64,000 nt of DNA from Alphaproteobacteria bacterium. Lineage in GTDB: Bacteria > Pseudomonadota > Alphaproteobacteria > UBA828. Shown in pieces: positions 2,840-26,889 of the stretch. The notes below the pieces were generated by a model. That model made no database searches, was not told where the DNA came from, and was given only the letters and a program-made list of their open reading frames with translations. Each line of letters begins with the position of its first letter. Positions within the stretch are counted from its first letter, which is position 1. Both the position numbers and the translations under genes were made by a program. The DNA lies in NCBI GenBank assembly GCA_963667785.2, contig CAXXMU010000002.1, positions 352,001 to 416,000 on the forward strand, written 5' to 3'.

Positions 2840-3724
2840 ATGAAAGCGCTCCCCGCAACGCTTCTTGCGATCGCACTCGCGTCGACCCTTGCCGCCTGCG
2901 GGGGCGGGGGCAAGCGAGCGCCCAGCATCGAGGAAATCCGGGAGCTGACCGGCCTGTCCGCGCCGGCCGAGACGCCGGGGGCCCAGCGCGTGCGAGCGCC
3001 GGACATCGAAGCGCGCGCCGATTCCCTGATCCTGTCCACGGTACACGGGGAGACGAGCCTCGCCGAGGTTCCCACTTTTCGATTGGAGTCACGATGCAGC
3101 GGAACCCGGTGCACGATATCCGAGTCGAGCATCGGCCTCTCAGACACCATAGAGCTGTCCGACCTCGAGCCCGTGGAAGGCGCCGCCGACGCGATCGGTA
3201 CCAGGTACGGCATCACCCTGATGTCGCAGACCGCGGAGCTGATGGACGCGAGATTCGTTTCGTTCGGCGCGTGGATGGAGCACGGCGCATTCGCGGTCCA
3301 GACCGAGGACGGCACGCTTGAAGGGACCAGGATCAGCGCCCGCTACGCAGCGGCCGGGGGAGACCTCACGGGAGCGGCGCCGGCCGGGAGCGCAACCTGG
3401 CGCGGCCTCATGGTCGGAACGCCGGCCACGGGGAGCAGCCGCGGCGACCGGCTGCAGGGTATTGCGGCCCTGAACTACGACATGAATGCCGGCGGCGGGC
3501 TCGACGTCGCCTTCAGCAGCATCACGAACATCGAGCGCGGAACGGCGCACTCGACGGCCACCGTGATCTTCGCCGACGTGCCGATCGGGTCGGACGGGAC
3601 GTTCGAGACCGGCTTGGCCGGCAACCGCATCCAGGGCGGCTTCTACGGCCCCGGCCACGCCGAGGCGGCGGGCATCTTCGAGCAGTCGAACATCGTCGGC
3701 GCGTTCGGGGCGACGCTCCAGTAG
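2840..3724 (+). CDS. surface lipoprotein with transferrin-binding-protein-like C-terminal beta-barrel
   Basis: Signal peptide with lipobox LAAC followed by GGGG; C-terminal GGFYGPGHAEAAGIFEQSNIVGAFGA typical of TbpB-like barrels. Confidence 0.7.
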   Translation: MKALPATLLAIALASTLAACGGGGKRAPSIEEIRELTGLSAPAETPGAQRVRAPDIEARADSLILSTVHGETSLAEVPTFRLESRCSGTRCTISESSIGLSDTIELSDLEPVEGAADAIGTRYGITLMSQTAELMDARFVSFGAWMEHGAFAVQTEDGTLEGTRISARYAAAGGDLTGAAPAGSATWRGLMVGTPATGSSRGDRLQGIAALNYDMNAGGGLDVAFSSITNIERGTAHSTATVIFADVPIGSDGTFETGLAGNRIQGGFYGPGHAEAAGIFEQSNIVGAFGATLQ

Positions 3725-3791
3725 GAAGGGGGCCGTACGCCGGTTGTCGGGATGGCAACAGGGGGCGGCGCGAGCCCCTGGACCGAAGGGC

Positions 3792-3864
3792 GCAAGAGAA
3801 AACTCCGGACGTCCGGGGCTTTCTGGACCTCTGCGGGAACCCGCGGTCTACCGGAATGGTGGAG
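3792..3864 (+). repeat. 73-bp direct repeat, copy 1 (putative att site: tRNA-Ala 3' 8 nt plus trailer/terminator)
   Basis: 63/73 identical, ungapped, to 33476..33548 (hand alignment). Confidence 0.85.
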
Positions 3865-4291
3865 GCGGGGTCTGCCAAGAAATGCACGCAACATAGTGAT
3901 ATAGAGTTCTATTCTTAGATATCGGTTCGCTCGCCCCCATAGTCGTGCCCACGCTGGAGGCGAGCAGAGGCGCAACCCGCAACGGTGGGTTCTACAATGA
4001 AATCTTATGGGTGCTATCAGCATGATGTCTTGGACGCTATATGATCGAATTGCATAGATTGCGTCTTGTCTGGAGTCGTACCGGCCCCGTCGGTACCGCG
4101 ACCTTCCCGAAGTTGGAGGCACAGGCATGGAGATTCGCGGCAGGTGGGAGCGCGAAGGGGCGCGCATTCGCGCCGCCGCAGGAGCCCTCGTGATGCCGGC
4201 GGGCGGGCGCGCGACGTTGCCGGCGGGGCCTCTCGGGCATCCCGCGACATGGGATCGGTCCCCCCGGTCCGCCTGACGGGAATCGACGTCG

Positions 4292-5452
4292 ATGACTTCG
4301 GGATCGAGCATACCGGCGGGTTCTTCGACGCCGCCCGTGTTCGTGACCGGTTCGGCCGGGCATGTCGGCGCCAACCTCGTGCGCCGGCTGCTCGACGAGG
4401 GCGTGCCGGTCCGGGTGCTGCTGAGACACGGCGACAACAACGAGGGCCTGGAGGGTCTCGAGGTCGAGCGCGCCTACGGCGACATTCGCGATCTGGATGA
4501 CACCAGGCGGGCGATCGCGGGGTGTCGGGGCGTCTATCACTGCGCGGCCTACGTCTCGACCATCGCAGGCAACCGCGCCCATCGCCGCGACCTGTTCGAG
4601 TGCAACGTTCTCGGCACCCGCAACGTGCTGCAGGCGGCGCGGGAGGCGGAGGCCGGCCGGGTGGTCGTGACGGGCTCGTTCAGCGCGGTCGGATACGACC
4701 TGGACGATCCGTCCGCTCCCAGCAACGAGACCATGCAGTTCTATCCCATGGAGCGCACGATGCCCTACGAGCGCAGCAAGTCGCTCGTCGAGCAGGAGTG
4801 CTGGCGCGCGGCGGCAACGGGACAGGACGTGGTGGTCGCAACCTGTTGCGCGGTGGTGGGGGGCGCCGACTTTCTCCCCTCGCGGCTGGGAAGAACCCTG
4901 TGCGACTACACCAACGGCAAGCTCCGTGCCTATGTCGATGGCGGGTTCGAGTTCGTCGCGGCCCGCGACATCGTCGAGGGGCACCTGCTCTGCATGCGCC
5001 ACGGCCGCTCGGGCGAGAAGTACATCTTCAGCACAGAGTACAAGACCATCTCGGATATCCTGGATCTCTTCGAGGAGGTCTCGGGCGTCCCGCGGCCGCG
5101 CCGGCGCATGCCGACCCGCCTCATGCTCGTCTTTTCGGAAATCGCGAGCTTCTATCTGAGCCGGGTCCACCCGGGCTTTCCCCAGCGCTTCACGCCCGGC
5201 GCCATCCGCCTGTTGCAAAAGCGCCGGCACGCCGACATCGGCAAGGCGAAGCGGGAGCTCGGCTATCGGCCGACCGGCCTCCGCGCCGCGGTGCACGAGG
5301 CCTACGCGTTCCACTACGGCCGCGACAAGATCGCGAACCCGCACGCGAAGCGCCCGCGCGAGGACGACGCGAGGCACCGTGTCGCGTCAGAGGAGGGCGA
5401 TCCCGCGCCGGACCAGGGCATGCGGATGATGGCAGGCGGGAGCGCGACATGA
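4292..5452 (+). CDS. extended SDR (3-beta-hydroxysteroid dehydrogenase/decarboxylase-like; SdmB-like)
   Basis: VTGSAGHVG Rossmann motif, YERSK catalytic YxxxK; first gene of the sterol operon. Confidence 0.75.
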   Translation: MTSGSSIPAGSSTPPVFVTGSAGHVGANLVRRLLDEGVPVRVLLRHGDNNEGLEGLEVERAYGDIRDLDDTRRAIAGCRGVYHCAAYVSTIAGNRAHRRDLFECNVLGTRNVLQAAREAEAGRVVVTGSFSAVGYDLDDPSAPSNETMQFYPMERTMPYERSKSLVEQECWRAAATGQDVVVATCCAVVGGADFLPSRLGRTLCDYTNGKLRAYVDGGFEFVAARDIVEGHLLCMRHGRSGEKYIFSTEYKTISDILDLFEEVSGVPRPRRRMPTRLMLVFSEIASFYLSRVHPGFPQRFTPGAIRLLQKRRHADIGKAKRELGYRPTGLRAAVHEAYAFHYGRDKIANPHAKRPREDDARHRVASEEGDPAPDQGMRMMAGGSAT

Positions 5453-6546
5453 AGGCGGCGCTACGCGAACCGCCCGGCTTCGAGGATGCCGGCAACCTGC
5501 GCCAGCAGGCGCGCGCCGCGGGCATGGACCCGAATTACTGGTATCCGGTCGAGGAGGTGCGCCGGATCAAGCCGGAGACGGTGGTCGAGGTCGTTTTCTG
5601 GAAGCGCTCCATCGCGCTCTTTCGCGGAAGGGACGGCACCTTCCAGGCGGTCGAGGATCGCTGCGCGCATCGCCAGCTCAAGCTCTCCCTCGGCGACGTG
5701 CAGGGATGCCGGCTGGTCTGCGCCTATCATGGCTGGGAGTACGGCGGGGAGGGGCGTCCCGCCGGGGTGCCCCACGACCCCGAGGGGCGAAGCTTTCCGA
5801 AACTCGCGCTCAAGACCTACCCGGTGAAGGTCCGCTACGGTCTGATCTGGCTCTTCCCGGGGGATCCGGCGCTGGCGGAGGTACGCCGGATCCCGGATAT
5901 TCCCGAGCTCGAGGGACGCGGCCGCTGGGCCTGCGTGCCGCTCTGCTTCACGTGGTCGGCTCACCACTCGATGGTGATCGACAACGTGAGCGACTTCACC
6001 CACGCACATCTGCACCGCCGCTACCGGCCCTTCGACGGGGCCACCCTCACCCGCTGCGAGACCCTCGGCGACAACGTGCATCTCGCCTACGACACGCACG
6101 TCGGGCGCGGGCGTATCTCCGGACTCTTCGTCGATCATCGGCGGCTCGATACCAACCGCATGGAGCTCTGCTACGAGTACCCCTACCAGTGGTCGAACAC
6201 CGACGACGCGATCAAGCACTGGCTCTTCGTGCTGCCGGTCGATGAGCGCACCAGCCGGGTGTTCTTCCTGTTCTACTTCAAGTCTCTGAAGGTTCCGTTG
6301 CTGCCCGTGCGCATTCCCCGCTTCGCCATGACCGCGGTGATGAAGGTCTCCAACCGCCTGCTCATCGCGCCCCTGCTCACCCAGGACCAGTTCGCGCTGG
6401 AGGCGGAGCAGGAGGGTTACGAGAAACACTGGGAGGCCCGTCCCGTCGAGTTCAATCCGGTGGTCAAGGCCTTTCAGAAGGTGACCGTGCGCAAGTGGCA
6501 GGAGCATCTGGCGCGCGAGACGGAGGCCGGCGATGCCGCCGCCTGA
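5449..6546 (+). CDS. Rieske non-heme iron oxygenase (sterol C4-methyl oxidase SdmA-like)
   Basis: CAH...CAYHGW Rieske cluster motif, DNVSDFTHAHLH mononuclear iron motif; ATGA overlap with the SDR gene. Confidence 0.75.
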   Translation: MKAALREPPGFEDAGNLRQQARAAGMDPNYWYPVEEVRRIKPETVVEVVFWKRSIALFRGRDGTFQAVEDRCAHRQLKLSLGDVQGCRLVCAYHGWEYGGEGRPAGVPHDPEGRSFPKLALKTYPVKVRYGLIWLFPGDPALAEVRRIPDIPELEGRGRWACVPLCFTWSAHHSMVIDNVSDFTHAHLHRRYRPFDGATLTRCETLGDNVHLAYDTHVGRGRISGLFVDHRRLDTNRMELCYEYPYQWSNTDDAIKHWLFVLPVDERTSRVFFLFYFKSLKVPLLPVRIPRFAMTAVMKVSNRLLIAPLLTQDQFALEAEQEGYEKHWEARPVEFNPVVKAFQKVTVRKWQEHLARETEAGDAAA

Positions 6547-7633
6547 AGCGCTCGACCTCTCGTCGGCGCTCTCGGGCGAGACCCTGCTCGAGGCCGCGGC
6601 GATGGTGCTGGGGTTCATCGCCCTCCTTTTCGTGACGTCGCTGATCCTGCCAGGGCGCCGCATCACGGGCCCGGATGCCGACGGGAACGAGCGCGTCTAC
6701 AAGCTCAACGGCCTCGCGCTCTTTGTCATCACCTTGCTCGTTGCGGGCCTCGCCCAGGGCTTCGGCTGGTTCTCCCTCTCGGTGCTGCATACCCACCTGC
6801 TCGCCCTCTTCGTCGTGGCGAACGGATTCGCGTTCGCTTTCTCCGGCTGGCTCTACCTGCGCGGGGTGCTCAGGCCCCGTTCGGAGTCCGGGTCCTGGCG
6901 GGACTTTTTCGACGGGGTGGATGCCGCTCCGTACTGGCTCGGGCTGGATATCAAGCTCTTCAGCTACTGCCCCTCCCTCATCGGCCTGGCGCTCTTCAAC
7001 GCATCGTTTGCCGCCGTGCAGTACGAGACCTACGGCGAGCTGACCCTGGCGATGATGCTCTATCAGACCTTCACGTTCCTGTACGTGCTCAACTACTTCC
7101 AGTTCGAGCAGGGGATGATCCATACCTGGGACATCGTCCGCGAGCGCTTCGGCTGGAATCTGGTCTGGGGCGACTACGTGCTGGTGCCCTTCTTCTACTG
7201 TCTCCCCGGCTGGTGGCTGGTCCACGCGCCGGAGCCGCTGTCGCCGGCCGCCGCCGCCGGGATCGTCGTGCTCTTCCTGTTCGGCTTCTGGATCTTCCGT
7301 GGTTCCAACCAGCAGAAGCACCGCTTCAAGCGCGACCCCACTGTCAAGATCTGGGGGCAACCCGCCAAGACCCTGGACGGGCGCCTCCTCGTCTCCGGCT
7401 TCTGGGGCATCGGGCGGCACCTCAACTATACGGGTGAGATCTGCGTCTACCTCACTTTCGCCCTCACCACCGGGTTTGTCTCCTGGGCTCCGTTCCTGTT
7501 GCCGGCGTGGGTCGCGGGTCTGCTGTGGCACCGTTCGATACGCGACGAGCGCCGCTGCCGCGCCAAGTATGGCGAGCTGTGGGAGCGCTACACGCAGAAG
7601 GCCCGCTTCGCGATGCTGCCCTTCATCCACTGA
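6533..7633 (+). CDS. ERG4/ERG24-family sterol reductase, most like delta14-sterol reductase
   Basis: Multi-pass membrane protein with TWDIVRERFGWNLVWGDYVLVPFFY, LLVSGFWGIGRHLNYTGE and RDERRCRAKYGELWERY signatures. Confidence 0.88.
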   Translation: MPPPEALDLSSALSGETLLEAAAMVLGFIALLFVTSLILPGRRITGPDADGNERVYKLNGLALFVITLLVAGLAQGFGWFSLSVLHTHLLALFVVANGFAFAFSGWLYLRGVLRPRSESGSWRDFFDGVDAAPYWLGLDIKLFSYCPSLIGLALFNASFAAVQYETYGELTLAMMLYQTFTFLYVLNYFQFEQGMIHTWDIVRERFGWNLVWGDYVLVPFFYCLPGWWLVHAPEPLSPAAAAGIVVLFLFGFWIFRGSNQQKHRFKRDPTVKIWGQPAKTLDGRLLVSGFWGIGRHLNYTGEICVYLTFALTTGFVSWAPFLLPAWVAGLLWHRSIRDERRCRAKYGELWERYTQKARFAMLPFIH

Positions 7634-7641
7634 GAACGGAG

Positions 7642-9051
7642 ATGGCCAACCCATCCCATAGCATGGCGACCCTGCCTTCGGCGGATCTCCCACCGCGGGC
7701 GGACGAGACACTTCCCGAGCTCGCGGGCAGGTGGCCGCTGCTCGGCCATCTGCCCGAGTTCCAGAGGGATCCGGTCGCCATGTTGAGCCGCGGCTGGCGC
7801 GAGCATGGCGAGCTCTTCCGTTTCCGGCTCGGGACCCGCGCGTTCGTTCTCTTCACCGGGCCCCAGGCCCACGACTTCTATTTCAGGACGCCCGAGGAGC
7901 AGCTGAACGCCAAGGCCGTCTATCGCTTCACCGTCCCCATCTTCGGACGCGGCGTGGCCTACGACACCTCCCCCGACATCATGGCGGAACAGCTGGGCTT
8001 TCTCTTTCCGGCGCTCCGCGAAGCGGCCATGCGCAGGTTCGCCCTCATCATGTTCGAGGAAGCGTGGCAGTTCGCCGACGCCCTCGGCGACGATGGGGAA
8101 ATCGATCTGCCGCACGCGATGAACGAGCTCACGGTCAAGATCGCGAGCCGCTGCCTGATCGGACAGGAAGTCCGCGATCGGGTGGACACCGGCTTTGCCG
8201 AGACCTACCACGACCTGCAGAAGGGCATTAACACCCTGGGATTCTTCCTGCCCAATCTTCCCGTCGCGTCGCATCGAAAGCGCGACAGGGCCCGGCGACG
8301 GGTGGCGGAGCTCTTCGGGCAGATCATGGCGGCGCGCCGGGACGCCGGGGCCAGCCCCGACGACTTCATGCAGACGCTCATGGACGCCCGGTACAAGAAC
8401 GGCCACTCTCTGAGCGACGACGAGATCACAGGGATCCTGCTGACGGTGCTGTTCGCGGGCCAGCACACCAGCGCGGTGCTCGCGACCTGGACCGGTCTGG
8501 AGCTTTTCAGGGCGCCATCCTACCTGGCGCGGGTGAGAGACGAGGCAGAGGACGTCTACCGCGAAGCGGGGTCCATGAGCATCGACAGCCTCCAGCGCCA
8601 GCCGGCTCTGGAGAACGCCGTCCGCGAGTGCGAGCGGCTGCACCCGCCGCTGATACTGCTGGTCCGAAAGGTGCTCGAGCCCCTGCGCTATGGAGAGCGC
8701 GTCGTGCCTGCCGGCACCATGGCCATGGTGTCGCCGGCGGTCTCGCACCGCCTGCCCCACATCTTCGCCGACCCGGAGCGCTTCTTCCCCGACCGCTTCG
8801 CGTCTCCCGCCTGCGAGGACAAGCAACACCGCTACGCCCTGATCGGCTTCGGCGGCGGCAAGCACGCGTGCATGGGGAAGAATTTCGCGTACATGCAGCT
8901 CAAGGCGATCTGGACCGTTCTGCTCGATCGCTTCGAGTTCTCCCCCAGCGGCGCCTTTCCGCGTCCGAACTACGGTAGCTGGGTGACGGGACCCGAGAGA
9001 CCGTGCCGCGTCCGCTACCGTCGTCGCTCGCAGCCGAGCGTCTTCCGATGA
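7642..9051 (+). CDS. cyp51: cytochrome P450 sterol 14-alpha-demethylase
   Basis: SRS1 YRFTVPIFGRGVAYD, I-helix LFAGQHTS, ExxR (ECER), heme motif FGGGKHACMG; GGAG RBS. Confidence 0.92.
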   Translation: MANPSHSMATLPSADLPPRADETLPELAGRWPLLGHLPEFQRDPVAMLSRGWREHGELFRFRLGTRAFVLFTGPQAHDFYFRTPEEQLNAKAVYRFTVPIFGRGVAYDTSPDIMAEQLGFLFPALREAAMRRFALIMFEEAWQFADALGDDGEIDLPHAMNELTVKIASRCLIGQEVRDRVDTGFAETYHDLQKGINTLGFFLPNLPVASHRKRDRARRRVAELFGQIMAARRDAGASPDDFMQTLMDARYKNGHSLSDDEITGILLTVLFAGQHTSAVLATWTGLELFRAPSYLARVRDEAEDVYREAGSMSIDSLQRQPALENAVRECERLHPPLILLVRKVLEPLRYGERVVPAGTMAMVSPAVSHRLPHIFADPERFFPDRFASPACEDKQHRYALIGFGGGKHACMGKNFAYMQLKAIWTVLLDRFEFSPSGAFPRPNYGSWVTGPERPCRVRYRRRSQPSVFR

Positions 9052-12000
9052 GCGGCGCCGCGTCGCGGCGTTACGACGTGGCCATTGTCGGCGCGGGGCC
9101 GGTGGGGAGCCTGTGCGCGCTCGCTCACGCACGGAAGGGCGCCCGGGTGGCCCTGCTGGAAGCGAACCCCAAGGCGTCCGGGCGCCTGGCGGGCGAATGG
9201 CTGCATCCGCCTGGCGTGCGGATACTGCAGCACTTCGGGATCGGGCTCGACACCCTGCCTCGCAGCACCGCGGGCAAGGGATTCGTGGTATTTCCCGATG
9301 ACGGCTCGGAGCCGATCGTCCTTCCCTACTTGAACGGCTCGCAGGGTCTGGCCTGCGAACATGCGCTGCTCGTCTCGAAGCTGCGGGAAGCCGCGGAGAA
9401 CGAGACGGATGTGGACTTCTTCACCCACGCGCGGGTGAGTGCGGTCGAAGACGGGCGGTTGGCCTATACCAACAACGGCACGGTTCACTCCGTCGACGCC
9501 GAGCGGATCATCGGCGCCGACGGGCGGGCGTCGGTCGTGCGCCAGTCCCTGGGCCTGTCGACGGAGCCGGTTCACTGCTCGCGGATGCTGGGGATCACCG
9601 TGAGCGACGTGAGCCTGCCCTTCGAGGGTCACGGGCACGTGCTGCTCGGCGGGCCGGGGCCGATTCTCGCATACGGTCTGGCAAACGATTGCGTCCGGAT
9701 CATCGTCGACGTTCCGCTGGACCGTTGGACACGCCAGGATCGGGTCGGCTTCCTGACGGAATCCTATGCAACGCTGCTGCCGGAGGCTCTCATGCCGGCG
9801 TTCGTCGACGCGGTGCGCGCGGGGCAATTCCACGTTGCGGCCAATCAGTTGCGGCCGCGCGTCACGTACGGCACCCCGCGTCGCGTGCTGATCGGCGACG
9901 CGGCCGGGCACTACCATCCGATGACGGCGGTCGGCATGACCCTCGGCTTTGGCGATGCGCTTGCCCTCGCCGAGGGCGGGAGCTTTCGCGACTTCGCCGC
10001 CGGGCGTTTCCGGGCGACCCGCGTGCCGGAGATGCTCGCCATGGGGCTCTACGAGGTCTTTGCCGATCATCGGGCCGAGGCGGTGGCGATGAGACACGCG
10101 GTCTACTGGGGATTGCGGGCGAACTCCGATTACCGGGAGCGGACAACGCGGATTCTCGCCTGCGAAGACCGATCCGCGTTCGTCATGGGTCTCGCGTTCT
10201 TCGGAACGGCGGCCCGGGCGGCGGTCGTGGAGATTCCGCTCTCCTTCCGCCGGTTCGCGCCGCGTCAGGGCCTGAAGATCTTCGGTGCGCTCACCGTTCG
10301 TCTCTTGTGGCTCCTGCGCTGGGCTCTGCAGCTGCGCCAGTCGCGACGCCAGGGCGGGCAGAATGACGAGCGGGCCCTGGACAGCCTGTCCCGCGCGCTT
10401 CTGCACTCCATGCCGCCGAGGCTCGACGCGTCCGGGCAAGGCCGGCCGAAGGACGCCGAGGCGGCCGACGCCGGTCCGGCCTTGAGGAGCGCGACCGCGC
10501 GCCTCCTGAGTCTCCAGGGCGAGGACGGTGGCTGGGAAGGCGAGATGGTCTGGTGCCCCATGCTCACCGCGCAATACGTGCTGCTGCACCACATCATCGG
10601 GCGGCCGCTCGAGCCCGGCCGGCGCCGGCGCGTGCTGCGCTCCTTCGAACGAACTCGTCTCGAAGGCGGCTCATGGGGCCTGCACGAGCATTCTACGCCC
10701 CACCTCTTCGTCACCGCCCTGGTCTACGTCGCCGCCCGGCTGCTCGGGGTCGAGCGGGACGATCCCCTGGTCGAGCCGGCCCGGCGCTTCATTGAGGCCG
10801 AGGGGATCGTGGGCATTCCCAGCTGGGGGAAGTTCTGGCTGGCGCTCCTGAACCTCTACGACTGGCGCGGGGTCAACGCCGTTCTGCCGGAGCTGTGGAG
10901 CCTGCCGCGGCGCTTGCCCCTGCACCCCTCGAATTGGTACTGCCACACCCGGCTCATCTACATGGCCATGGCGGCGATCTACCCGCACCGCTTCCAGGCG
11001 CCCGTCACGCCCTCGATCGCGGCGCTGCGGGAGGAGCTGTACCCCCAGGGATTTGCCGAGGCGGATTTCTCCGCCGCCCGCGACCGCCTGCGGGAGGCCG
11101 ACCTCTACGCACGGCCGAGCGTGTGGCTCAAGGTTGGATACAAGATTGCGCGCGTGTTCGATCGGCTCCACGGCAAGCGCCTGCGCGCCCGTTGCACGGA
11201 GGCGATCGTCAGGCAGATCAGATGGGAGCTGCGAACCACCAGCCATACGAGCATCTCTCCGGTGAGCGGCCTCCTCAACATGCTTGCGCTCTGGCTGCGC
11301 GATCCGGACGATGCCGACCTCCACCGGGCGCTCGCGAAGCTGGACGACTGGATCTGGGAAGACGAGGACGAGGGCGCGCGCGTCGTCGGCGCGAGAAGCG
11401 CCTCGTGGGACAGCGGCTTCGCGCTGCAGGCGCTGGCGGCGGTGCCCGCGTTCGACGGGGTGGGGGACGCGCTGCGGCGCGGCGCCGACTTCCTGCTCGG
11501 GGAGCAGATCGCCGCCAGCTTCGACGGGTTTCGCGAGGCCTATCGTACCGACCCCAGGGGCGGCTGGTGCTTTGCCGGGGGGTGGCACGGCTGGCCGGTG
11601 AGCGACTGCACCGCGGAAGCGGTGCTCGGACTTCACGCCGCCGGTCGTGGCGCCACGCACGCGGGCGCGTTGCGCGATGCGGTCGGGTTCATGCTGCGCT
11701 GCCAGAACCGCGACGGCGGATTCGGCAGCTACGAGGCGCGGCGCTCGGCGTTCGGTCTGGAGTGGATGAATCCGGCCGAGATGTTCGGCGACTCGATGAC
11801 CGAGCAATCCTACGTCGAGTGCACCGCGTCCTGCCTCGCGGCGCTCGCCGCCTGCGTGGAGGAGGTTCCGCACATCGCGGACGGAGCGGTGACGGGCGCG
11901 ATCGCTCGGGGCGATGCCTGGCTGCGCCGGACTCAGGCGAGCGACGGCTCGTGGCGCGGCGTGTGGGGGGTTCAGTTCATCTACGGCACGCTCTTCGGGG

Positions 12001-12473
12001 TCAGGGGTCTTCTCGCCGCCGGGGCCGGCCCCGGCGATCCGGCGCTGCGCTCGGCCTGCCGCTGGCTGCTGGAGCGCCAGCGGGCAGATGGGGGATGGGG
12101 CGAGCACCACAGCGGATGCCTGAGCGGCCGATACGTCCCGCACGAGGAAAGCCAGGTCATCCAGACCGCGTGGGCGTTGATCGCGCTGCTCGAGGCGGGC
12201 GAATCGAACTGGACCGCGATTGCGCGGGGCGCCCGCTTCCTGCTCGACACGCTGGACGGGGACGGGACATGGCCCAAGCAGGACATGGTGGGCGTGTTCT
12301 TCCGAACGGCGCTCCTGGACTACGTGCTCTATCGACAGTATTTCCCGCTGCACGCGCTGGCCCTCTACGAGCAGCGCCGCCGAGAGCGGCTGGGCCTCGC
12401 CGCCCCCGCCGCCTGCACCACCGCCGCACCGCCGCCCCCGCCCGAAGCGGCTGCCGCCTGTTCGCTTTCCTGA
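9048..12473 (+). CDS. squalene epoxidase (monooxygenase) - oxidosqualene cyclase fusion protein, 1141 aa
   Basis: N-half: GAGPVG FAD fold, GEWLHPPG, DGRASVVR, GDAAGHYHPMTAVGMT. C-half: QW repeats (QGEDGGW, QNRDGGF, QASDGSW, QRADGGW), PSWGKFWL, WYCHTRLIY, VSDCTAE, YVECT. One uninterrupted frame. Confidence 0.92.
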   Translation: MSGAASRRYDVAIVGAGPVGSLCALAHARKGARVALLEANPKASGRLAGEWLHPPGVRILQHFGIGLDTLPRSTAGKGFVVFPDDGSEPIVLPYLNGSQGLACEHALLVSKLREAAENETDVDFFTHARVSAVEDGRLAYTNNGTVHSVDAERIIGADGRASVVRQSLGLSTEPVHCSRMLGITVSDVSLPFEGHGHVLLGGPGPILAYGLANDCVRIIVDVPLDRWTRQDRVGFLTESYATLLPEALMPAFVDAVRAGQFHVAANQLRPRVTYGTPRRVLIGDAAGHYHPMTAVGMTLGFGDALALAEGGSFRDFAAGRFRATRVPEMLAMGLYEVFADHRAEAVAMRHAVYWGLRANSDYRERTTRILACEDRSAFVMGLAFFGTAARAAVVEIPLSFRRFAPRQGLKIFGALTVRLLWLLRWALQLRQSRRQGGQNDERALDSLSRALLHSMPPRLDASGQGRPKDAEAADAGPALRSATARLLSLQGEDGGWEGEMVWCPMLTAQYVLLHHIIGRPLEPGRRRRVLRSFERTRLEGGSWGLHEHSTPHLFVTALVYVAARLLGVERDDPLVEPARRFIEAEGIVGIPSWGKFWLALLNLYDWRGVNAVLPELWSLPRRLPLHPSNWYCHTRLIYMAMAAIYPHRFQAPVTPSIAALREELYPQGFAEADFSAARDRLREADLYARPSVWLKVGYKIARVFDRLHGKRLRARCTEAIVRQIRWELRTTSHTSISPVSGLLNMLALWLRDPDDADLHRALAKLDDWIWEDEDEGARVVGARSASWDSGFALQALAAVPAFDGVGDALRRGADFLLGEQIAASFDGFREAYRTDPRGGWCFAGGWHGWPVSDCTAEAVLGLHAAGRGATHAGALRDAVGFMLRCQNRDGGFGSYEARRSAFGLEWMNPAEMFGDSMTEQSYVECTASCLAALAACVEEVPHIADGAVTGAIARGDAWLRRTQASDGSWRGVWGVQFIYGTLFGVRGLLAAGAGPGDPALRSACRWLLERQRADGGWGEHHSGCLSGRYVPHEESQVIQTAWALIALLEAGESNWTAIARGARFLLDTLDGDGTWPKQDMVGVFFRTALLDYVLYRQYFPLHALALYEQRRRERLGLAAPAACTTAAPPPPPEAAAACSLS

Positions 12474-12520
12474 GCGTCGGCGGCCTCGCGCAGGGCCGCG
12501 CGGCCGAAAGTCCGCGTCGT

Positions 12521-13552
12521 TCAGTCGCGCGAGTGCCCGGGCTTGCGGGCCAGGAAATAGAACATCGGCGTGAAGACGCCGGACCTGCCGCCGTCCACCA
12601 GCGCGTCCGCCCCCGCATTCAGGATCGTGCTGACCGCGCGGGCGCCCTCGGGAAAGAGCCGCAGCCTCTCGCCGACCCGCAAGGTCAGATTGGTCAGCGC
12701 GCGGCCGAGTGGCGTGCGCGGAATGCTCGAAAGGTTGAGGTCACGGCCCTGCAAGGCACGGTACCAGGGCATCGCCGGGTCCGCTTCGGGCGCGCGGTCG
12801 CGCGCTTCCAGCAGATCGAACCCCGCCCTTTGCAATGCGGCGGAAACCTCCGACGTGGTCGCGATATCCGGCAGCCCATTGCCGATCATGATGTCGTTCT
12901 TGATTCGCAGGTGCTCCGCGTTGGCGGGATCGAATTTCTCGGTGAGGCACCACTCGTAGCCCGCGAAACAGGCCCCCGGACGCAGCACGCGCAGAACCTC
13001 GCGGAACGCGCCCGTCTTGTCGGGCGCGTGGGGCATGGACTCGATCGCGATGGCAGCATCGTAGCGGCCGTCTTCGTCGGGAATCTGCATGTAATCGCCG
13101 TGAATGAAGCGGCACAACGATTCCACATCGCGGGTGTGAAGTTTGGCGCGCTCGATCTGATAGGCGTTATTGTTGATGCCGACAAAGCTGGCCCCGGTTC
13201 GGCGCGCCAGATTGCCCATCGGCCCGCCGACCCCGCATCCGACATCGAGCACGTGCATACCCGGCTTCAGGGACAGCTCTTCAGCCAGAAAATGCTGGTG
13301 CCGGAGCAGCGATGCCTTGAAGCTCTCGCCCCGCCTTCGGGGAGCGAAGTGAAAGGACTGACCCCAGCCGAACTCGTAGAAGTCGGTGACCAGGTCGTAG
13401 TAGCGATTCACGAAGGAGCGATAATGCTCCTTCCTGCGCTCCGGGCCGGCGTCGTAGATTTCGGTGTATTCGTCGACGGTGGGCTTCACCTCGTCCGGGG
13501 CAAGGTCCGCGAGGGTGCGCGGTTTCGATCGCGTGGCGGAAGGACGATTCAT
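12521..13552 (-). CDS. smt: sterol C24-methyltransferase (SMT/ERG6-like)
   Basis: YYDLVTDFYEFGWGQSFHFAP (region I), LDVGCGVGGP (SAM binding), IESMPHAP (region III variant), YEW (region IV), C-terminal FTPMFYFLARKP. Confidence 0.92.
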   Translation of the reverse strand: MNRPSATRSKPRTLADLAPDEVKPTVDEYTEIYDAGPERRKEHYRSFVNRYYDLVTDFYEFGWGQSFHFAPRRRGESFKASLLRHQHFLAEELSLKPGMHVLDVGCGVGGPMGNLARRTGASFVGINNNAYQIERAKLHTRDVESLCRFIHGDYMQIPDEDGRYDAAIAIESMPHAPDKTGAFREVLRVLRPGACFAGYEWCLTEKFDPANAEHLRIKNDIMIGNGLPDIATTSEVSAALQRAGFDLLEARDRAPEADPAMPWYRALQGRDLNLSSIPRTPLGRALTNLTLRVGERLRLFPEGARAVSTILNAGADALVDGGRSGVFTPMFYFLARKPGHSRD

Positions 13553-13740
13553 CGGCACATTCTGCCAGAGCCGCACGTCGTCCCCAAGACCGGAATATTG
13601 CGGGAGGTCCCAACACCTCGCTTCTTGACCCAGATATCGACGGCGTCCAGAGCATGGCGCCTTTGTATACGGCGCCGGACTCTCCGCAGGGTACAATGCG
13701 ACGCGCCGCAACGCTGCAGCGTCTGAGAGGACCGGATCAC

Positions 13741-14475
13741 ATGCCAGAAGAGCAGGCGGACGGGGCCCCTTCCGAACCCGGCGCGCGCCGGGTTCGGTTG
13801 GCGATCCCGCCGATCGTGTTTACGGGGCTTGTCATCGCGAGTCTGACCGTGGCCGGTATCGGGGCGCGCTACGGCGTTCGCGGCGATTTCGACGTTATCC
13901 ATGGACTTCTGATCCTCTTCTTTTCCGTCAATCTGGTGATCTGCTATTGGGAAATCTGCCTGTTCTTCAGGCGCGACTACATCGAGAAGCGCGCCGAATA
14001 CTGGCATGAACGCCGGCAGAAAACAGGCCGAACGTCGGGCATCGAGTTCCTTACCGGACCTGTTCCGTTGAGGCGAATACTATCCTTGACGACATGGGCG
14101 GACGTCTGGGCCACGTATTCGCAGTTTGACACTTCGTACACCGACCGGCGCACATATGGTTACAACGTGGACATCGCCAACGGCTTCGTAACGCCGGTGC
14201 CGATGCTGATTCTTTTCGCCGCCTTCACCGTCGACTTCCTGCCCGCCCTCGTCGCCGGCATCATCGGGGCGATGATGTTCTGGCAGTTGGCCTACGCGAC
14301 ATCGGTCTATTGGGTCAGCTTCTTCGTGGCCAAGCGGCAGAGCCGCATCCGCCGAAAGGACCTCTACATCTACATCTGGGCTCTGAACTGCCCGTGGGTG
14401 CTGTTCGCCCTGCTGGGACTCTACGTCTCGATTCGCCTGATCGTGAACGGCGACTACAGCGTTCTCGGCTATTGA
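13741..14475 (+). CDS. integral membrane protein, EBP/EXPERA-like (candidate sterol delta8-delta7 isomerase)
   Basis: About 5 hydrophobic segments; WATYSQFDTSY resembles the EBP W..Y...D.RY motif; NxPW near the C-terminus; adjacent to smt. Confidence 0.55.
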   Translation: MPEEQADGAPSEPGARRVRLAIPPIVFTGLVIASLTVAGIGARYGVRGDFDVIHGLLILFFSVNLVICYWEICLFFRRDYIEKRAEYWHERRQKTGRTSGIEFLTGPVPLRRILSLTTWADVWATYSQFDTSYTDRRTYGYNVDIANGFVTPVPMLILFAAFTVDFLPALVAGIIGAMMFWQLAYATSVYWVSFFVAKRQSRIRRKDLYIYIWALNCPWVLFALLGLYVSIRLIVNGDYSVLGY

Positions 14476-14646
14476 TCGCGGCATTTCCAGATCGCCTTCG
14501 GCAAGGCAGACGGCGACACGTCCGGGCACGGCGCCGCCCCGCGCCGCCCGTTCCGCCGCCAGCCGAAGGGGCCTCGTCGTCGAACCTTTCCGCGCTCGAA
14601 GCTCAGACACCCCGCTGCTCGTCTTCCAGGAAAGTCGTCATAGCTC

Positions 14647-15018
14647 ATGCAGAAGACAGCCGTCATAGACGGTCTCCAGTACGCCAACTGGTCGGACAAG
14701 GTATTTCGACAGATGGGCGACAGACATGTCGTCGCCATCCATGTCACCATCTGCTACCACGAGAACTTTCGTGAAACCGTCGCGAACATTGCCGCCTGGA
14801 GCCGGCGTTTCGATCAGTTCTCCGAACTGATTTTCCCGCTCCACTCGGCGGACGATGTCGACAGGGCGATGAGGGAGGAACGCACGGCCATCGTGTTCGG
14901 CTGCCAGAACTGCTCGCCGATCGAGAACGACATCGATCTCGTTCGCATATGCCGGCCGCTCGCCCACGGCAGCTGGCTGCGCTTCTTCCGGGAGTCGTTC
15001 AGCCCGCAGGGCTCGTGA
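14647..15018 (+). pseudogene. membrane dipeptidase family gene with large in-frame internal deletion
   Basis: N-terminal IDGLQYANWS...HVTICYHENFRET...QNCSPIEND joined directly to a C-terminal-like WLRFFRESF; only 123 aa. Confidence 0.7.
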
Positions 15019-16727
15019 TGGGCTGTCCGGCCGATGACCGTGCGATCGCCCCGCTGCGCGCGCCCGAGCACGTCATGCGGCTGGCGCGCATGGGCGCGTC
15101 GTTCCAGACACGCCTGAGCTTCATGCGCCAGTTGATCCGCCGCATGCGAAGGGAGCGGTGGCGGTTCGAGCGCCTCCGTTTCGACCTCGACGCACGGGGA
15201 TACGGCACCGCCGTTTACGCGGCCCACGGCCCGCAGCGGACCTACTCGCTCATCGCGTACACGCACGAGATCCGTCCGGAGCAGCGCACCGACCGCGTGA
15301 TCGCGGAGGCCTGGGATGCCACGTTCTCGTTCTTCGACGGCGTGCCGGACGATGCGGATATCGAACGGTTGCGCGCCAACACGCCGAGGCAGGAGGACGG
15401 CCGCTTCACCTCCCGCGAGCTCACGCTGGCCCGCGCCAACAAGAGCATGCGCCTGTTCGAGCATGTCGTCGAAAGCCTCGCCGCCGGCCGACAGCCCGAC
15501 GCCGCCCGGCTGGCCGAGGTCGGCTACCTGATGCGCACGACGGCCGTCTATGGGAGCGGCAAGTTCGGTTGCGCCGACCGCGCCAAGATTGCGGACCGGA
15601 CCGAGATGCGCGGACCCTTCCAGGCCGAAATGCTCACGGTCTATCTGATCCGTTGGCTGAGCATCGACCTGGTCAACCACGTGGCGCGCGGCCGGGGCGG
15701 CGCGCGGGCCGCTCCTCTGAATGCCGACTACGCGCGCTATCTGGGCATCGGCAACGCCACCGGGCTGGGAATGGCTCCCTTCCTCATCAAGCACCCGGTG
15801 CTCATCAACAATTGGGTCCTGGCGCGGGAGACCGCGCTCGCGCGGGTGCGAGCGCTGCCGTCCGCGACCGCCGGTCAGGTCGCCGCCTTCATGGCCCTGC
15901 TGGACCGCGCCCGCCGCTTCGTCGGCGAGTGGAACGTCGACGACGAAGCCCAGACGGCGCGCATTCGCACGCTGCGTGCCGAGCTCGGCGAGCTGGAGAG
16001 CTGGTGCGAGGCCGGGCTTCGTCGCCCCCATCCGTGGGACGCGATGTACCGCCACGCCGAGGAAGCCTTCTCCGCCGAGGGGCAGGAGTTCGCCGTCTCG
16101 CTGCTGCTCGAGCAGCAGGGCCCGGTCGTGGACGCGCTCGGCGACGAGATGAGCGCCCCGGAGCCGCACAGGCTCAGGGCCGAGATGTCGCTGGGCGAGC
16201 TGCTCGGCATCATCGATGCGCATTATGGCTGGGCGTTGGCGACCGACTACTCGCGGCCCGAAGCCGTGCAGCGCTTCTGGTATTACTCCGAGGAGAAGCT
16301 CGAGCCTCGGGTGGGCGACCGCCACACCGAGCCCGGCGCCGACCTCGAAATGCCGATCGCGATCGCCCGGGACGTGAGCCGGCTCAGGGACCGGCTTCTC
16401 GAATACGACACGGCGCTGACGGTCGCCGACTTTCTCGTCGCCGCGCCGGAGTACCGCAGCATCGTCTGGCGGGTGCAGATGGCCTCGGACTGTCCCTACG
16501 GCGAGATCCGCGACAATCTGCTCGGCGCCGGCCAGCGCCCGGTCGACATCCTGCGCTTCAAGCTCTCGTTTTTCGGCGTCGCCAAGTTCGATCCGAAGTC
16601 CGATCTGTGGACGCGGGTCAACATGTATCAGGGCGCGCCGCTGCCGCAGGAGATCGCCGATGCGCGCGAGACCGAATGGGTGTTTCCGACAAGGCCCGCG
16701 GCACTGTCGGCCGAGGCGATGCCATGA
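15018..16727 (+). CDS. conserved hypothetical protein (alphaproteobacterial, usually beside dipeptidase and DUF3726 genes)
   Basis: Long ORF with good codon usage and conserved-looking blocks (GYLMRTTAVYGSGKFG, GIGNATGLGMAPFL, FWYYSEEKLEPR); TGATG overlap with upstream gene. Confidence 0.8.
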   Translation: MGCPADDRAIAPLRAPEHVMRLARMGASFQTRLSFMRQLIRRMRRERWRFERLRFDLDARGYGTAVYAAHGPQRTYSLIAYTHEIRPEQRTDRVIAEAWDATFSFFDGVPDDADIERLRANTPRQEDGRFTSRELTLARANKSMRLFEHVVESLAAGRQPDAARLAEVGYLMRTTAVYGSGKFGCADRAKIADRTEMRGPFQAEMLTVYLIRWLSIDLVNHVARGRGGARAAPLNADYARYLGIGNATGLGMAPFLIKHPVLINNWVLARETALARVRALPSATAGQVAAFMALLDRARRFVGEWNVDDEAQTARIRTLRAELGELESWCEAGLRRPHPWDAMYRHAEEAFSAEGQEFAVSLLLEQQGPVVDALGDEMSAPEPHRLRAEMSLGELLGIIDAHYGWALATDYSRPEAVQRFWYYSEEKLEPRVGDRHTEPGADLEMPIAIARDVSRLRDRLLEYDTALTVADFLVAAPEYRSIVWRVQMASDCPYGEIRDNLLGAGQRPVDILRFKLSFFGVAKFDPKSDLWTRVNMYQGAPLPQEIADARETEWVFPTRPAALSAEAMP

Positions 16728-17467
16728 GCGAGACGCTGACGCCTTTGTCTCTGAACGAGATCTGCTTCTACTTCACGCGGGCGGCGGTGGGTGCCGGTGC
16801 GCCGTTCGGGATCGGCGAGGACTTTGCGGAGGCGTCGAAGTCTCTGGCCTATCTGGGCTTCGATCCGGCCCAGGCTGCCGTGCCGGCTTTGCGCGGACTT
16901 AGCTGCGGCCTGAGCGGCACGTCGCTCTCGCTGCGCACTGCGGGGGATGCCATTCATGTCGGGAGCAGTGACGCTCCCATCCTGTCCGCGCTCTACGCCG
17001 GGCCGGTGGCCGCCGACCGGCTGTCGATCGAGGCGGGGTGCGGCAGGGAGCGGCATCTCCGACTCGACGACACGGACCAGCCGCTGCTGATCGTGGGGGC
17101 GATTGCTGCAGCGGGCATCGATAAAGCCCGGATCGCCCTGTCGTGGCCGTTGCGGAACGGCAGACGCGCCGTGGTCGAGCTGAACGGCGGCATCGCGACA
17201 ATCGCCGGCCTGTATTCCCGAAGCGTCGCATCGCTTGAGCCTGCACCGGTCGACATCCTCCTCAACGGCACGCCTCTCGAGATGGAGCCCGCGCGCACGG
17301 CGACGAGGAGTCTCGCGGAGGGCAGGTCCAAGTCAGTCCGCCACGGTGTCGACGTGGACGAGGTGGCAAGGTCGACGGTGCTGGCGTTCTTCGAAAAGTG
17401 TCTCGTGCCTGCCACCGATCGGTCCCGCGATGCCGGGGCCGGGGCCGGTCTCACCGACAACGACTGA
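16724..17467 (+). CDS. DUF3726-like protein
   Basis: N-terminal SLNEI...RAAVGAG.PFGIGED and C-terminal PAT..SR..GAGAGLTDND; ATGA overlap. Confidence 0.7.
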   Translation: MSETLTPLSLNEICFYFTRAAVGAGAPFGIGEDFAEASKSLAYLGFDPAQAAVPALRGLSCGLSGTSLSLRTAGDAIHVGSSDAPILSALYAGPVAADRLSIEAGCGRERHLRLDDTDQPLLIVGAIAAAGIDKARIALSWPLRNGRRAVVELNGGIATIAGLYSRSVASLEPAPVDILLNGTPLEMEPARTATRSLAEGRSKSVRHGVDVDEVARSTVLAFFEKCLVPATDRSRDAGAGAGLTDND

Positions 17468-17715
17468 GGCACCGTCACCCGACCCCGTACGGGGCCAGTC
17501 GGTGCGACGCCATGCTGGGCCTCTGCGGCAATGCGCCTCGCCTCCGGAATAATTCACATGAATCGAGAGAAACATGAGAACACGGTCGTTTCGGCGTCGC
17601 CGAGCGTCGTGTATTCCGCGCGGCCGAGGTGTACGAAACAGCGAGCCCGTGGCGCGGCCGCCGGTCAGCCCCTAGACTCAGTGTCGGCTGCAATCCGGCC
17701 GAAGGAGCGCCGCCG

Positions 17716-18603
17716 ATGGCTCGTATCGACATTCAGTTCACCCTGTTCTCCGCCTTCTACTCGCCGCTGATCGCGACGATGGCAGGCGGGTTCCTGGCCG
17801 AGGAAGGTCTGGAGGCGGAGTGGTCGGTCGCACCGCCGGGAGGTTCCGCCATCGCGGCTCTGAAAGACGGCGCGGCCCATGTCGTGCAGTCGGCGCCGAG
17901 CCAGGCCTTCGGGCCGCTGTCGAAGGGCGAGGACCCCGGCGTCGTCCACTTCGCTCAGATCAACGAGATGGACGGCTTTTTCCTCACCGGGCGGGCGGGC
18001 GACCCGGATTTCGACTGGCACAAGCTGGACGGCGCCGAGGTCGTGCTGTTCGGCGGTGGCCAGCCGCTCGCCATGTTCAAGTATGCCTGCCACAAGGCGG
18101 GTATCGATTACGGCCGGCTGAAGGCGATCCACCCCGGCAATGCCCTGGAGATCGACCGCGCCTTTCGCGACGGTGTGGGCCAGTATGTCCAGCAACAGGG
18201 ACCGTTTCCCCAGCAGTTGGAAGCGGATGGCATCGGCCGCGTCGTGGCGCAGGTCGGCCGGCAGGTCGGCCGCTGCGGCTTCTCCAGCTTGTGCGCTCGT
18301 CCGGATTGGCCAGAAACGCCCATGGCGCGGGCCTTCACACGCGCGTATCGCAAGGCGCGGCTCTGGCTCAACGAAACGCCGGCCGCCGAGGTCGCTCGTG
18401 CCGAGCAACCCTACTTTCCGGAGATCGGGCTGCCGGCGCTCGAACGCTGCATCGCTGCCTACCAGCAACTCGGCTGCTGGGCGCCGCATATCGAGATCAC
18501 CCGCGCAGCCTACGAGGCGACGCTCGATATCTTTGCTTACAACGGCCTGATCTCCGAGCGCTTCGCCTACGAGCGGGTCTGTGCAGCGCCGCCGGAGGAC
18601 TAG
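17716..18603 (+). CDS. NMT1/THI5-like ABC-type substrate-binding protein (no signal peptide evident)
   Basis: SAFYSPL...GFLAEEGL, HFAQINEMDGFFL; AAGGAG RBS. Confidence 0.75.
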   Translation: MARIDIQFTLFSAFYSPLIATMAGGFLAEEGLEAEWSVAPPGGSAIAALKDGAAHVVQSAPSQAFGPLSKGEDPGVVHFAQINEMDGFFLTGRAGDPDFDWHKLDGAEVVLFGGGQPLAMFKYACHKAGIDYGRLKAIHPGNALEIDRAFRDGVGQYVQQQGPFPQQLEADGIGRVVAQVGRQVGRCGFSSLCARPDWPETPMARAFTRAYRKARLWLNETPAAEVARAEQPYFPEIGLPALERCIAAYQQLGCWAPHIEITRAAYEATLDIFAYNGLISERFAYERVCAAPPED

Positions 18604-18695
18604 CCCAAGTTCCTCGCCACGGTCACGTCGGAGACCGCCCTGATGACCGAGAAGGGGTGGGAACCGCTGAACCATAGGCGGCACGAGAGAGTCCA

Positions 18696-18896
18696 GTGAG
18701 ATTGGTCGCCTGGAACTGCAACATGGCCTTGCATCGCAAGCTCGACGCGCTGCGGCGGCTGCGACCCGACGTGGCGGTGGTGAGCGAGTGTGCAGAACCC
18801 CAGGTAGTGGCCGAGCGGGCTGGCCTCGCTTCATCTCCGGCGCCTGCGGCGGATCTGGCCGACGGTGATAGTAGGGCGAAGCTCGTTTCCGGATAG
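18696..18896 (+). pseudogene. truncated endonuclease/exonuclease/phosphatase-family gene
   Basis: RLVAWNCN...PDVAVVSEC matches the EEP N-terminus; stops after 66 aa. Confidence 0.6.
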
Positions 18897-18934
18897 CTCA
18901 CTCGCATGCGACGGTTTGGTGACGGGAGGCAGCC

Positions 18935-26790: not shown

Positions 26791-26889
26791 CGAGGACTTG
26801 CTGATACCGGCGCGAGAACGCGTTGACGCCGCGAATTACCTGGATTCATAAGGGCCCCCATGCCGCAGACCACAGGCATGTCGACTGCC

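Follow-up and report, generated by a model that had tools for sequence, protein, structure and literature searches.

C-24 alkylated steranes serve as fossils of eukaryotes and sponges. The locus described here raises the question of whether a bacterium could make C-24 alkylated sterols de novo, and which enzyme would carry out each step. It lies in a 64,000-nucleotide stretch of DNA, hereafter the window, which corresponds to positions 352,001–416,000 of a 974-kb contig (CAXXMU010000002.1) in the genome bin GCA_963667785.2 of an alphaproteobacterium. An earlier description of the window, made from its letters and open reading frames (ORFs) and called here the sequence-only reading, had proposed a sterol locus of seven genes. 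All seven were found at 4292–14475, each on the strand that had been given for it. We read positions 4000–14505 as a sterol biosynthesis cassette of the type known as "clusters of steroid genes" (CSG) in sponge symbionts, located in the chromosome of a sponge-associated alphaproteobacterium, and we put the probability of this reading at about 80%.

Enzyme families and the predicted sterol pathway

The entry enzyme of the cassette is a fusion of squalene epoxidase (SE) and oxidosqualene cyclase (OSC). The SE domain covers approximately residues 1–400 and the OSC domain approximately residues 478–1115, with a basic and hydrophobic linker between them. The SE domain matched Pfam SE (PF08491) with 84.1 bits (cut-off 20.1), FAD_binding_3 with 87.9 bits, and human SQLE (PDB 6c6n) with 86.5 bits. 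The OSC domain matched both SQHop_cyclase_N and SQHop_cyclase_C in Pfam. It scored 747 bits with TIGR03463 (cut-off 851), 496 bits with TIGR01787 (cut-off 322.7), 275 bits with the hopene-cyclase model, and 427 bits with human lanosterol synthase (PDB 1w6k). The cyclase catalytic motif V-S-D-C-T-A-E was kept, and its Asp-Cys lay opposite human D455/C456 in the alignment. When the fused protein was searched against one genome per species, 369 relatives were found, and all locus counts below refer to the best 80 of these 369. The SE-OSC frame was without a stop in 78 of the 80 loci and, judged from these frames, this clade as a whole has epoxidase and cyclase in a single polypeptide. Each of the other two loci (L003 and L076) had one in-frame stop in this ORF; they are decaying copies or assembly errors.

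The enzymes acting at C-14 and C-4 were assigned from profiles and solved structures. CYP51 scored 194 bits with Pfam p450, and its top 56 PDB sequence matches were all CYP51 (195–358 bits); the best, at 358 bits, was 6mcw, the Methylococcus CYP51, and the first other P450 scored 137 bits. The ERG24-type reductase scored 230.1 bits with Pfam ERG4_ERG24 (PF01222; gathering score 27) and 230 bits with the Δ14-sterol reductase in PDB 4quv. The best NCBIfam match of the Rieske gene was NF052579 (SdmA, 4β-methylsterol monooxygenase) with 398.7 bits, and Pfam gave Rieske (71.5 bits) and VanA_C (56 bits). The short-chain dehydrogenase/reductase (SDR) matched NF052578 (SdmB) best, with 295.1 bits, followed in Pfam by Epimerase (116 bits) and 3Beta_HSD (65 bits). 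Neither gene reached the equivalog cut-off of 600. On these profiles the pair consists of SdmB-like and SdmA-like homologues, not equivalogs, though these were the best matches by far. SdmAB removes one C-4 methyl group in methanotrophs, and some homologues remove both, according to Lee et al. (2023); the pair studied here may likewise remove one or both.

The sterol C-24 methyltransferase (SMT) scored 69.9 bits with Pfam Sterol_MT_C (cut-off 21.7) and 63.4 bits with Methyltransf_11. At what we presume, from a putative alignment to the yeast G-D-G motif, to be yeast SMT position 249 it has Asn (G-N-G); therefore methyl or ethyl products, and no isopropyl, would be expected from it. Gly at this position is needed for propylation, and the G249N exchange left only C28 and C29 sterols, as a preprint states (Brown and Welander 2025, 10.64898/2025.12.19.695621). 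Region I, a motif defined from the same preprint, reads Y-E-F-G-W-G, and its Y81/F83 are the same as in the propylating Chlamydiae SMT. Elsewhere in the genome (C6:314040–315071, minus strand), a second SMT was found, which has 343 aa and shares 45% identity with that of the cassette. It lies outside any sterol cluster, adjoins an M24 peptidase gene, and has a divergent Region I (M-Q-F-G-W-S).

HpnD (306 bits) and HpnC (252 bits), each scoring over its cut-off, form an adjacent pair beside Dxr, roughly 106 kb upstream in the contig that holds the window, and HpnE (393 bits) lies on contig C8. With HpnC, HpnD, and HpnE present, the squalene supply is therefore encoded. Squalene would be made from precursors of the methylerythritol phosphate (MEP) pathway by these three enzymes. 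The N-terminal domain of the fusion would then epoxidise squalene and the C-terminal domain would cyclise the product to a lanosterol- or cycloartenol-type protosterol. CYP51 would take off the 14α-methyl group, and the ERG24-type reductase would saturate the resulting Δ14 bond. The Rieske/SDR pair would follow the bacterial route and take one or both methyl groups off C-4, the product of gene 7 would probably move the Δ8 bond to Δ7, and the SMT would methylate C-24. From the sequences we infer the action of each enzyme according to its family, the step order, the identity of the product, and the role of gene 7 as an isomerase. The expected products would be 24-methyl(ene) and possibly 24-ethyl sterols, demethylated at C-14 and at least partly demethylated at C-4.

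The ATGA overlaps that had been noted at 5449 and 9048 were confirmed. In addition, the start of the ERG24 gene overlaps the Rieske gene by 14 nt, and the spacing between the ERG24 stop and the CYP51 start is 9 nt. From these overlaps and the short gap, we regard the first five genes (SDR to SE-OSC) as translationally coupled. The content and strands of the earlier gene calls stood, and three of the start codons did not (Table 1). CYP51 most likely starts at 7642 instead of 7507, as picked from the GGAG-ATG context, and the SMT most likely at 13552 instead of 13711. The start of gene 7 was moved from 13654 to 13741 because homologues in related loci share the resulting length and start codon: 20 of the 27 full-length homologues in the loci have 244 aa and start at the equivalent codon, and the other seven have 243–252 aa. 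The G+C content of the window is 65–77%, and coding frames were readily told by the G+C at third codon positions (GC3).

Table 1. Features of the sterol cassette, with positions in the window, strand, and basis of assignment
Feature	Positions	Strand	Basis and predicted role
Conserved upstream region, presumed promoter/leader of the operon	4000–4291	+	Nucleotide similarity to the closest loci
SdmB-like NAD(P)-dependent SDR	4292–5452	+	NCBIfam and Pfam profiles; putative C-4 demethylation, C-3 dehydrogenase/decarboxylase-reductase type
SdmA-like Rieske oxygenase	5449–6546	+	NCBIfam and Pfam profiles; putative C-4 methyl oxidation
ERG24-type sterol Δ14 reductase	6533–7633	+	Pfam ERG4_ERG24, PDB 4quv
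CYP51 sterol 14α-demethylase, without ferredoxin fusion	7642–9051	+	Pfam p450, PDB sequence matches
Fused squalene epoxidase-oxidosqualene cyclase (SE-OSC), 1141 aa	9048–12473	+	Pfam, TIGRFAM, PDB
Sterol C-24 methyltransferase (SMT), 343 aa, convergent with the operon	12521–13552	−	Sterol_MT_C, Methyltransf_11
Gene 7, 244-aa five-helix membrane protein, candidate sterol Δ8–Δ7 isomerase	13741–14475	+	Predicted EBP (EXPERA) fold

The cassette resembles clusters that are already in print. CSG were reported in 115 of 537 Ircinia metagenome-assembled genomes (MAGs), with 11 classes represented, Alphaproteobacteria among them (Kelly et al. 2022, Microbiome, PMC9531527). The text of that paper describes CSG for sponge-symbiont MAGs of 10 phyla and reports horizontal transfer and purifying selection. 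It gives the order ERG24-CYP51-LSS, usually with a "dihydroflavonol-4-reductase" (DFR) plus one "hypothetical protein" located 5′ on the same strand, and with SMT1/ERG6 or FDFT1 located 3′ on the opposite one. ERG24, CYP51, and the cyclase of the window are likewise adjacent and in the same order on the plus strand; the SDR and Rieske genes form the 5′ same-strand pair, and the SMT lies 3′ on the opposite strand. The carriers are also sponge-associated, judged from the matching sponge-metagenome runs and from the titles of the related loci, many of which name sponge bins or sponge-symbiont taxa. From their isolate names, several of the fetched loci appear to belong to the Kelly-type sponge MAG set. 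The two descriptions differ at the cyclase, which that text names LSS only, mentioning no epoxidase domain, whereas the window has the SE-OSC fusion. They also differ at the 5′ genes, left there as DFR and hypothetical protein and suggested as possible SdmAB, whereas those of the window score as SdmB-like and SdmA-like. The isomerase that the text names for several of its clusters is ERG2, whereas the window has the EBP-like gene 7.

The cassette also has likenesses to Methylococcus capsulatus, in that CYP51 6mcw is the closest solved match and SdmA and SdmB are the best NCBIfam matches. It differs from M. capsulatus in its CYP51 of 469 aa without a ferredoxin domain (a CYP51-ferredoxin fusion of 551 aa in M. 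capsulatus), in SdmAB scores below the equivalog cut-offs, and in the addition of a canonical ERG24, an SMT, an EBP-fold gene, and the SE-OSC fusion. SMTs from sponge-metagenome clusters with sdmA, sdmB, and erg homologues have yielded 24-methyl, 24-ethyl, and in three cases 24-isopropyl sterols in vitro (Brown et al. 2023, Nat Commun, PMC10070321). That study lists two SMT copies per genome ("1 of 2", "2 of 2"), as found in this genome; its SMTs were assayed in vitro, whereas the SMT of the window is assigned from its sequence.

This type of locus has been in print since 2022–2023, and the window is another well-assembled example of it and no discovery of a kind. The sequence-only reading had listed methanotrophs, myxobacteria, and planctomycetes as known producers and had missed the published sponge-symbiont clusters. 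Its family assignments and its pathway logic, from epoxidation to C-24 methylation with the isomerase as a candidate, held up; its novelty was overstated. Two points were not found in print, namely the SE-OSC fusion and the EBP-fold gene 7. No description of a natural SE-OSC fusion (including in the available part of PMC12414744) or of a bacterial EBP homologue was found in the literature, and figures and supplements, which lay outside the search, may show one.

Gene 7 and the predicted isomerase step

Gene 7 had been called EBP-like. By sequence this name failed, as gene 7 scored 7.5 bits (E 7.1) with Pfam EBP (PF05241) and did not reach the gathering score of 25.7. PF05241 was matched weakly by 5 of the 59 full-length members of the gene 7 family (best E 0.0029), and no other Pfam family was matched by more than one of them. 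Searches of the PDB sequences with two family profiles (A1 and A2) returned no EBP; A1 gave chance-level matches and A2 none. The whole genome contained no match to Pfam EBP at E ≤ 1. The family comprises 327 representatives at 50% identity (E ≤ 0.001). Two homologues carry a source name, in both cases "hypothetical protein", and no precomputed Pfam domain occurred among the 120 listed.

By predicted fold the name was supported. The AlphaFold2 model, built with 26 homologues, had a mean predicted local distance difference test score (pLDDT) of 82 and a predicted template modelling score (pTM) of 0.78. The model was compared with 48,161 representative PDB chains in VIA-align, and the top match was human EBP (6oht_A), with Z 15.0 and a root-mean-square deviation of 2.7 Å over 176 of 206 residues at 12% identity. 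The sigma-2 receptor (7m93_A), another EXPERA protein, followed with Z 10.7, and unrelated helical proteins ranked from 8.6 down. According to the caveat of the aligner, helical bundles can reach Z 13 from arrangement alone; we take the EBP fold as supported because Z was 15, coverage was near-complete, and a second EXPERA member was next in rank. The top Foldseek match was also human EBP (8w0r_A), with a probability of 0.97 and a non-significant E of 0.2; the clear match thus came from VIA-align, which works independently of Foldseek. Of the 30 nearest ESM Atlas clusters, 22 share a family set that includes EBP, and in the EBP-bearing cluster listed the EBP family was found on 20% of the members.

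Residues N64, E71, W119, W123, Y126, D130, Y133, D144, N147, G148, Y185, Y190, N216, and W219 are nearly or fully invariant in the gene 7 family. The catalytic residues of EBP are His76, Glu80, Glu122, Asn193, and Trp196. The invariant residues of gene 7 could not be mapped onto them, and the N-x-x-W in the last helix, which resembles the Asn193/Trp196 spacing, is a lead only.

The genomic context of gene 7 is in keeping with the predicted fold. The gene was present in 28 of the 80 loci, and in 24 of these it lies at most 3 kb from the cyclase. It directly follows the cyclase in the Nitrospirales and Binatia clusters, and five loci had gene 7 without an SMT match in the fetched stretch. Forty-nine species genomes from 14 genera of the order to which the window belongs were surveyed. 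An OSC-grade cyclase (741–755 bits) was found in 8 of the 49, all among the 21 genomes of the same genus as the window, and the other 41 had hopene-cyclase-grade matches at best. Gene 7 occurred in all eight OSC-bearing genomes and in one of the other 41. Among 33 chromosome-level MAGs with the cluster, the family was found somewhere in the genome in 24 and was absent from nine. In one locus (L004:16160–17156), a gene 7 homologue was split over three frames, through decay or an assembly error. ERG2 (PF04622) gave no match in this genome or in the 33 chromosome-level MAGs, in a search that lacked a positive control, the control genomes being blank as well.

On the basis of the model, we slightly favour the view that gene 7 encodes an isomerase of some kind, and we regard it as a candidate Δ8–Δ7 isomerase outside the Pfam EBP family. 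A wider proposal is that gene 7 founds an unannotated bacterial branch of EBP/EXPERA proteins and is the Δ8–Δ7 isomerase of these clusters, replacing ERG2 and moving together with the cyclase between sponge symbionts that belong to many phyla. This proposal draws on the predicted fold and is tentative; we hold it at somewhat less than even odds. Hoshino and Gaucher (2021) infer that EBP evolved within eukaryotes, and they mention a trio of uncharacterised genes found beside SMT in bacteria, to which gene 7 may belong. If a bacterial EBP branch is real, the EBP-type isomerase would not be a purely eukaryotic invention, contrary to current reconstructions. Together with the SE-OSC fusion, it would give a compact and nearly complete "eukaryote-like" post-lanosterol pathway leading to C-24 alkylated sterols of the Δ7 or Δ5,7 type.

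The strongest alternative concerns this step. Gene 7 could encode an EXPERA-fold protein that binds, senses, or transports sterols, or an enzyme that shifts another double bond or opens an epoxide, and the products would then keep the Δ8 bond. The sigma-2 receptor, second among the structural matches, is a ligand-binding protein without known isomerase activity. The low Pfam score, the nine MAGs without the family, and the position of gene 7 here as a separate, divergently oriented transcription unit also speak for a role other than Δ8–Δ7 isomerisation. On the other side, the enzyme EBP clearly leads the fold matches, and the near-invariant acidic and polar residues inside the helices (E71, D144, N147, N216, and W219) are enzyme-like. 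The search for ERG2, with the limit given above, left no ERG2-type isomerase, and gene 7 directly follows the cyclase in the Nitrospirales and Binatia clusters even without a nearby SMT. We consider this alternative unlikely, though well worth keeping in view, and retain gene 7 as the candidate isomerase of the cassette.

Source of the sterols and integrity of the locus

Several results weigh against the reading of the cassette as a whole. The SdmA, SdmB, and OSC scores lie under the NCBIfam equivalog or subfamily cut-offs (399 and 295 versus 600; 747 versus 851). The cassette contains neither a ferredoxin nor a reductase that could partner CYP51 or the Rieske oxygenase. Positions 381, 449, and 453 of human OSC separate lanosterol from cycloartenol synthases. 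The cyclase has A/H/V there, a mixed signature that does not allow the protosterol to be named. To these are added the Pfam score of gene 7, its unmapped residues, its absence from nine chromosome-level MAGs, and the estimated contamination of the bin (6.6%, at 98% completeness).

A different source of the sterols was also considered, in which there is no de novo synthesis and the enzymes modify sterols or intermediates taken from the sponge host. Six genomes of the same genus (G032, G034, G035, G040, G043, and G048) have a Sterol_MT_C-bearing gene without an OSC-grade cyclase, which fits such a use, and they may modify sterols made by others. One of them, G034, also carries gene 7. Brown et al. 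(2023, PMC10070321) discuss a Chlamydiae MAG in which an active SMT is the sole sterol gene, and they consider that host and symbiont may share the pathway. The present genome differs from these cases in having the complete set of entry enzymes (HpnC, HpnD, HpnE, and Dxr together with the fused epoxidase-cyclase), and its epoxidase-cyclase gene is translationally coupled to the later-acting enzymes. The fused ORF is intact in 78 of the 80 loci, and purifying selection on the cyclase (ω 0.17) has been reported by Kelly et al. (2022, PMC9531527). We consider dependence on host sterols very unlikely for this locus, and de novo synthesis remains the preferred reading.

The sequence-only reading had raised the possibility of a chimeric contig, and this was not borne out. 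The contig is uniform in G+C over its 974 kb; all 14 contigs of the genome have 69–72% G+C, and the cassette has 65–70%. The cassette genes are free of introns, overlap each other, and have a GC3 of 0.77–0.90, similar to their neighbours. The window further encodes sirohaem synthase, sulfite reductase, and ribosomal protein S1, and it has four tRNA genes. The cassette occurs in eight genomes of the genus, one of which is a single contig of 4.2 Mb. Ten sequencing runs were listed as holding the stretch, with a word share of 0.21–0.39; four of them are labelled sponge metagenome and six have coded organism names. In DNA run X2 ("sponge metagenome", an independent assembly), contigs bridge 3658–4645 and 13213–15999, with differences of a few percent, and run X1 has zero-difference contigs for either flank and for the cassette interior. 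An artefact of assembly or binning, in which a fragment of eukaryotic or otherwise foreign DNA was joined to a contig of an alphaproteobacterium, is therefore left with a negligible probability: the contamination estimate and near-duplicate HpnE and SQS_PSY genes on contigs C8 and C9 would favour it, and the long contig with even G+C, the gene structure, the flanking housekeeping genes (sirohaem synthase, sulfite reductase, and ribosomal protein S1), the eight carriers in the genus, and the X2 contigs across both junctions stand against it.

The near-duplicate genes form the same pair at C8:53465–55577 and C9:1927–4059, an HpnE-like oxidase divergent from SQS_PSY, and result from duplication, contamination, or strain mixture. 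Contigs from RNA libraries of one study (X19 and X20) matched 4341–12292, with parts up to 13539, at 90–95%. They were set aside as evidence of expression, since they come from relatives and DNA may be their source, and no weight was given to the missing coverage of the flanks. The alphaproteobacterial origin proposed earlier agrees with the labels of the nearest relatives.

Boundaries, distribution, and significance of the cassette

The 80 related loci were all full-length in the SE-OSC protein, with 59–92% protein identity, and all came from MAGs. By NCBI phylum label, 55 belong to Pseudomonadota (25 Alphaproteobacteria and 30 Gammaproteobacteria), 7 to Nitrospirota, 3 each to Binatota and Acidobacteriota, 2 each to Actinomycetota and Thermodesulfobacteriota, and 1 each to Nitrospinota and Rhodothermota, giving eight named phyla; six are without a label. 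A search for the cluster in MAG collections had been suggested. In 60 of the 80 loci, the five genes of the operon run colinearly along a single strand. The SDR, Rieske, and ERG24 genes were present in 67 loci each, CYP51 in 68, and the SMT in 57, and all seven genes in 22.

The boundaries of the cassette are sharp. Locus L002 aligned with the window at 90.9% over 10,511 nt, at 4000–14505 only, and L006 aligned at 90.0%, at 4004–14477 only (blastn). In more distant loci, nucleotide similarity starts at 4274–4291. The flanks of L006 have 66–71% identity to this genome, short repeats aside. The right flank of L002 (OY763937.1, a 4.15-Mb single-record chromosome) matches another contig of this genome, C1, at 87–91%; therefore, the two organisms are close, and the cassette is at a different place. 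The region 4000–14505 is a 10.5-kb unit with sharp edges. Five flanking genes were tested against the 80 loci. Four of them (at 14644–20068) were common to none, and the fifth, an upstream response regulator, had matches of 28–39% identity in six loci, which is the level of paralogues. No tRNA genes were found near the cassette boundaries, where no search for integrases or transposases was made.

Horizontal transfer fits the cross-phylum protein identity of 59–92%, the unshared flanks, and the patchy distribution. In the SE-OSC tree (FastTree), rows grouped largely by phylum label, with nine changes compared with a least possible number of seven, and the tree by itself does not show frequent recent transfer between phyla. 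We read it as suggesting that transfer between phyla was infrequent and that spread within groups came afterwards. Two loci labelled as Gammaproteobacteria, L012 and L010 (Thiotrichales and Rariloculaceae), fell inside the alphaproteobacterial SE-OSC clade, L012 as sister to the group of the window itself; this reflects transfer or an error of binning or labelling.

Other observations concern the surroundings of the cassette. Just outside its right edge, a 124-aa ORF (14644–15018, plus strand) matches the membrane dipeptidase M19 profile (319 positions) only over positions 37–127 (E 1.5e-10), and a 42%-identical match lies at C2:511220–511525. The fragment was considered as an insertion scar, an idea that was dropped since the truncation is on the side away from the cassette. 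The ORF at 14949–16727 (plus strand; 592 aa, GC3 0.88) has no Pfam family at E ≤ 10 and occurs in none of the 80 loci. The stretch 26000–28000 has 58% G+C, compared with 65–77% elsewhere in the window, and may be a foreign insert. Four ORFs inside and next to it (26083–26790, 26860–27561, 27601–28371, and 28740–29657) were tested and matched no Pfam family.

Elsewhere in the genome, a second reductase of the ERG4/ERG24 family (C1:508851–511096, minus strand; 379 aa) is 32% identical to that of the cassette. It adjoins an adh_short SDR and lies near an Oxidored_FMN/Pyr_redox protein. From these families, the second reductase and the SDR may be a further sterol-modifying pair, e.g., a side-chain or Δ7 reductase. 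Two genes of the fatty-acid-hydroxylase family were also found. No triterpene cyclase other than the OSC, including squalene-hopene cyclase, was found in the 98%-complete bin, and the seven other OSC-bearing genomes of the genus also keep a hopene-cyclase-grade gene. This genome thus appears to have a sterol cyclase without a hopanoid cyclase, while its seven relatives keep both, and sterols may replace hopanoids in it.

In the window, the sharply bounded 10.5-kb cassette can be seen cleanly within a large contig. The SE-OSC fusion is a part that pathway engineering could use as it stands, and it may be an instance of substrate channelling; gene 7 is a testable candidate for the missing isomerase step. 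Bacterial clusters able to make C-24 alkylated sterols de novo would weaken the reading of C-24 alkylated steranes as fossils of eukaryotes and sponges, as has been argued in print since 2022–2023.

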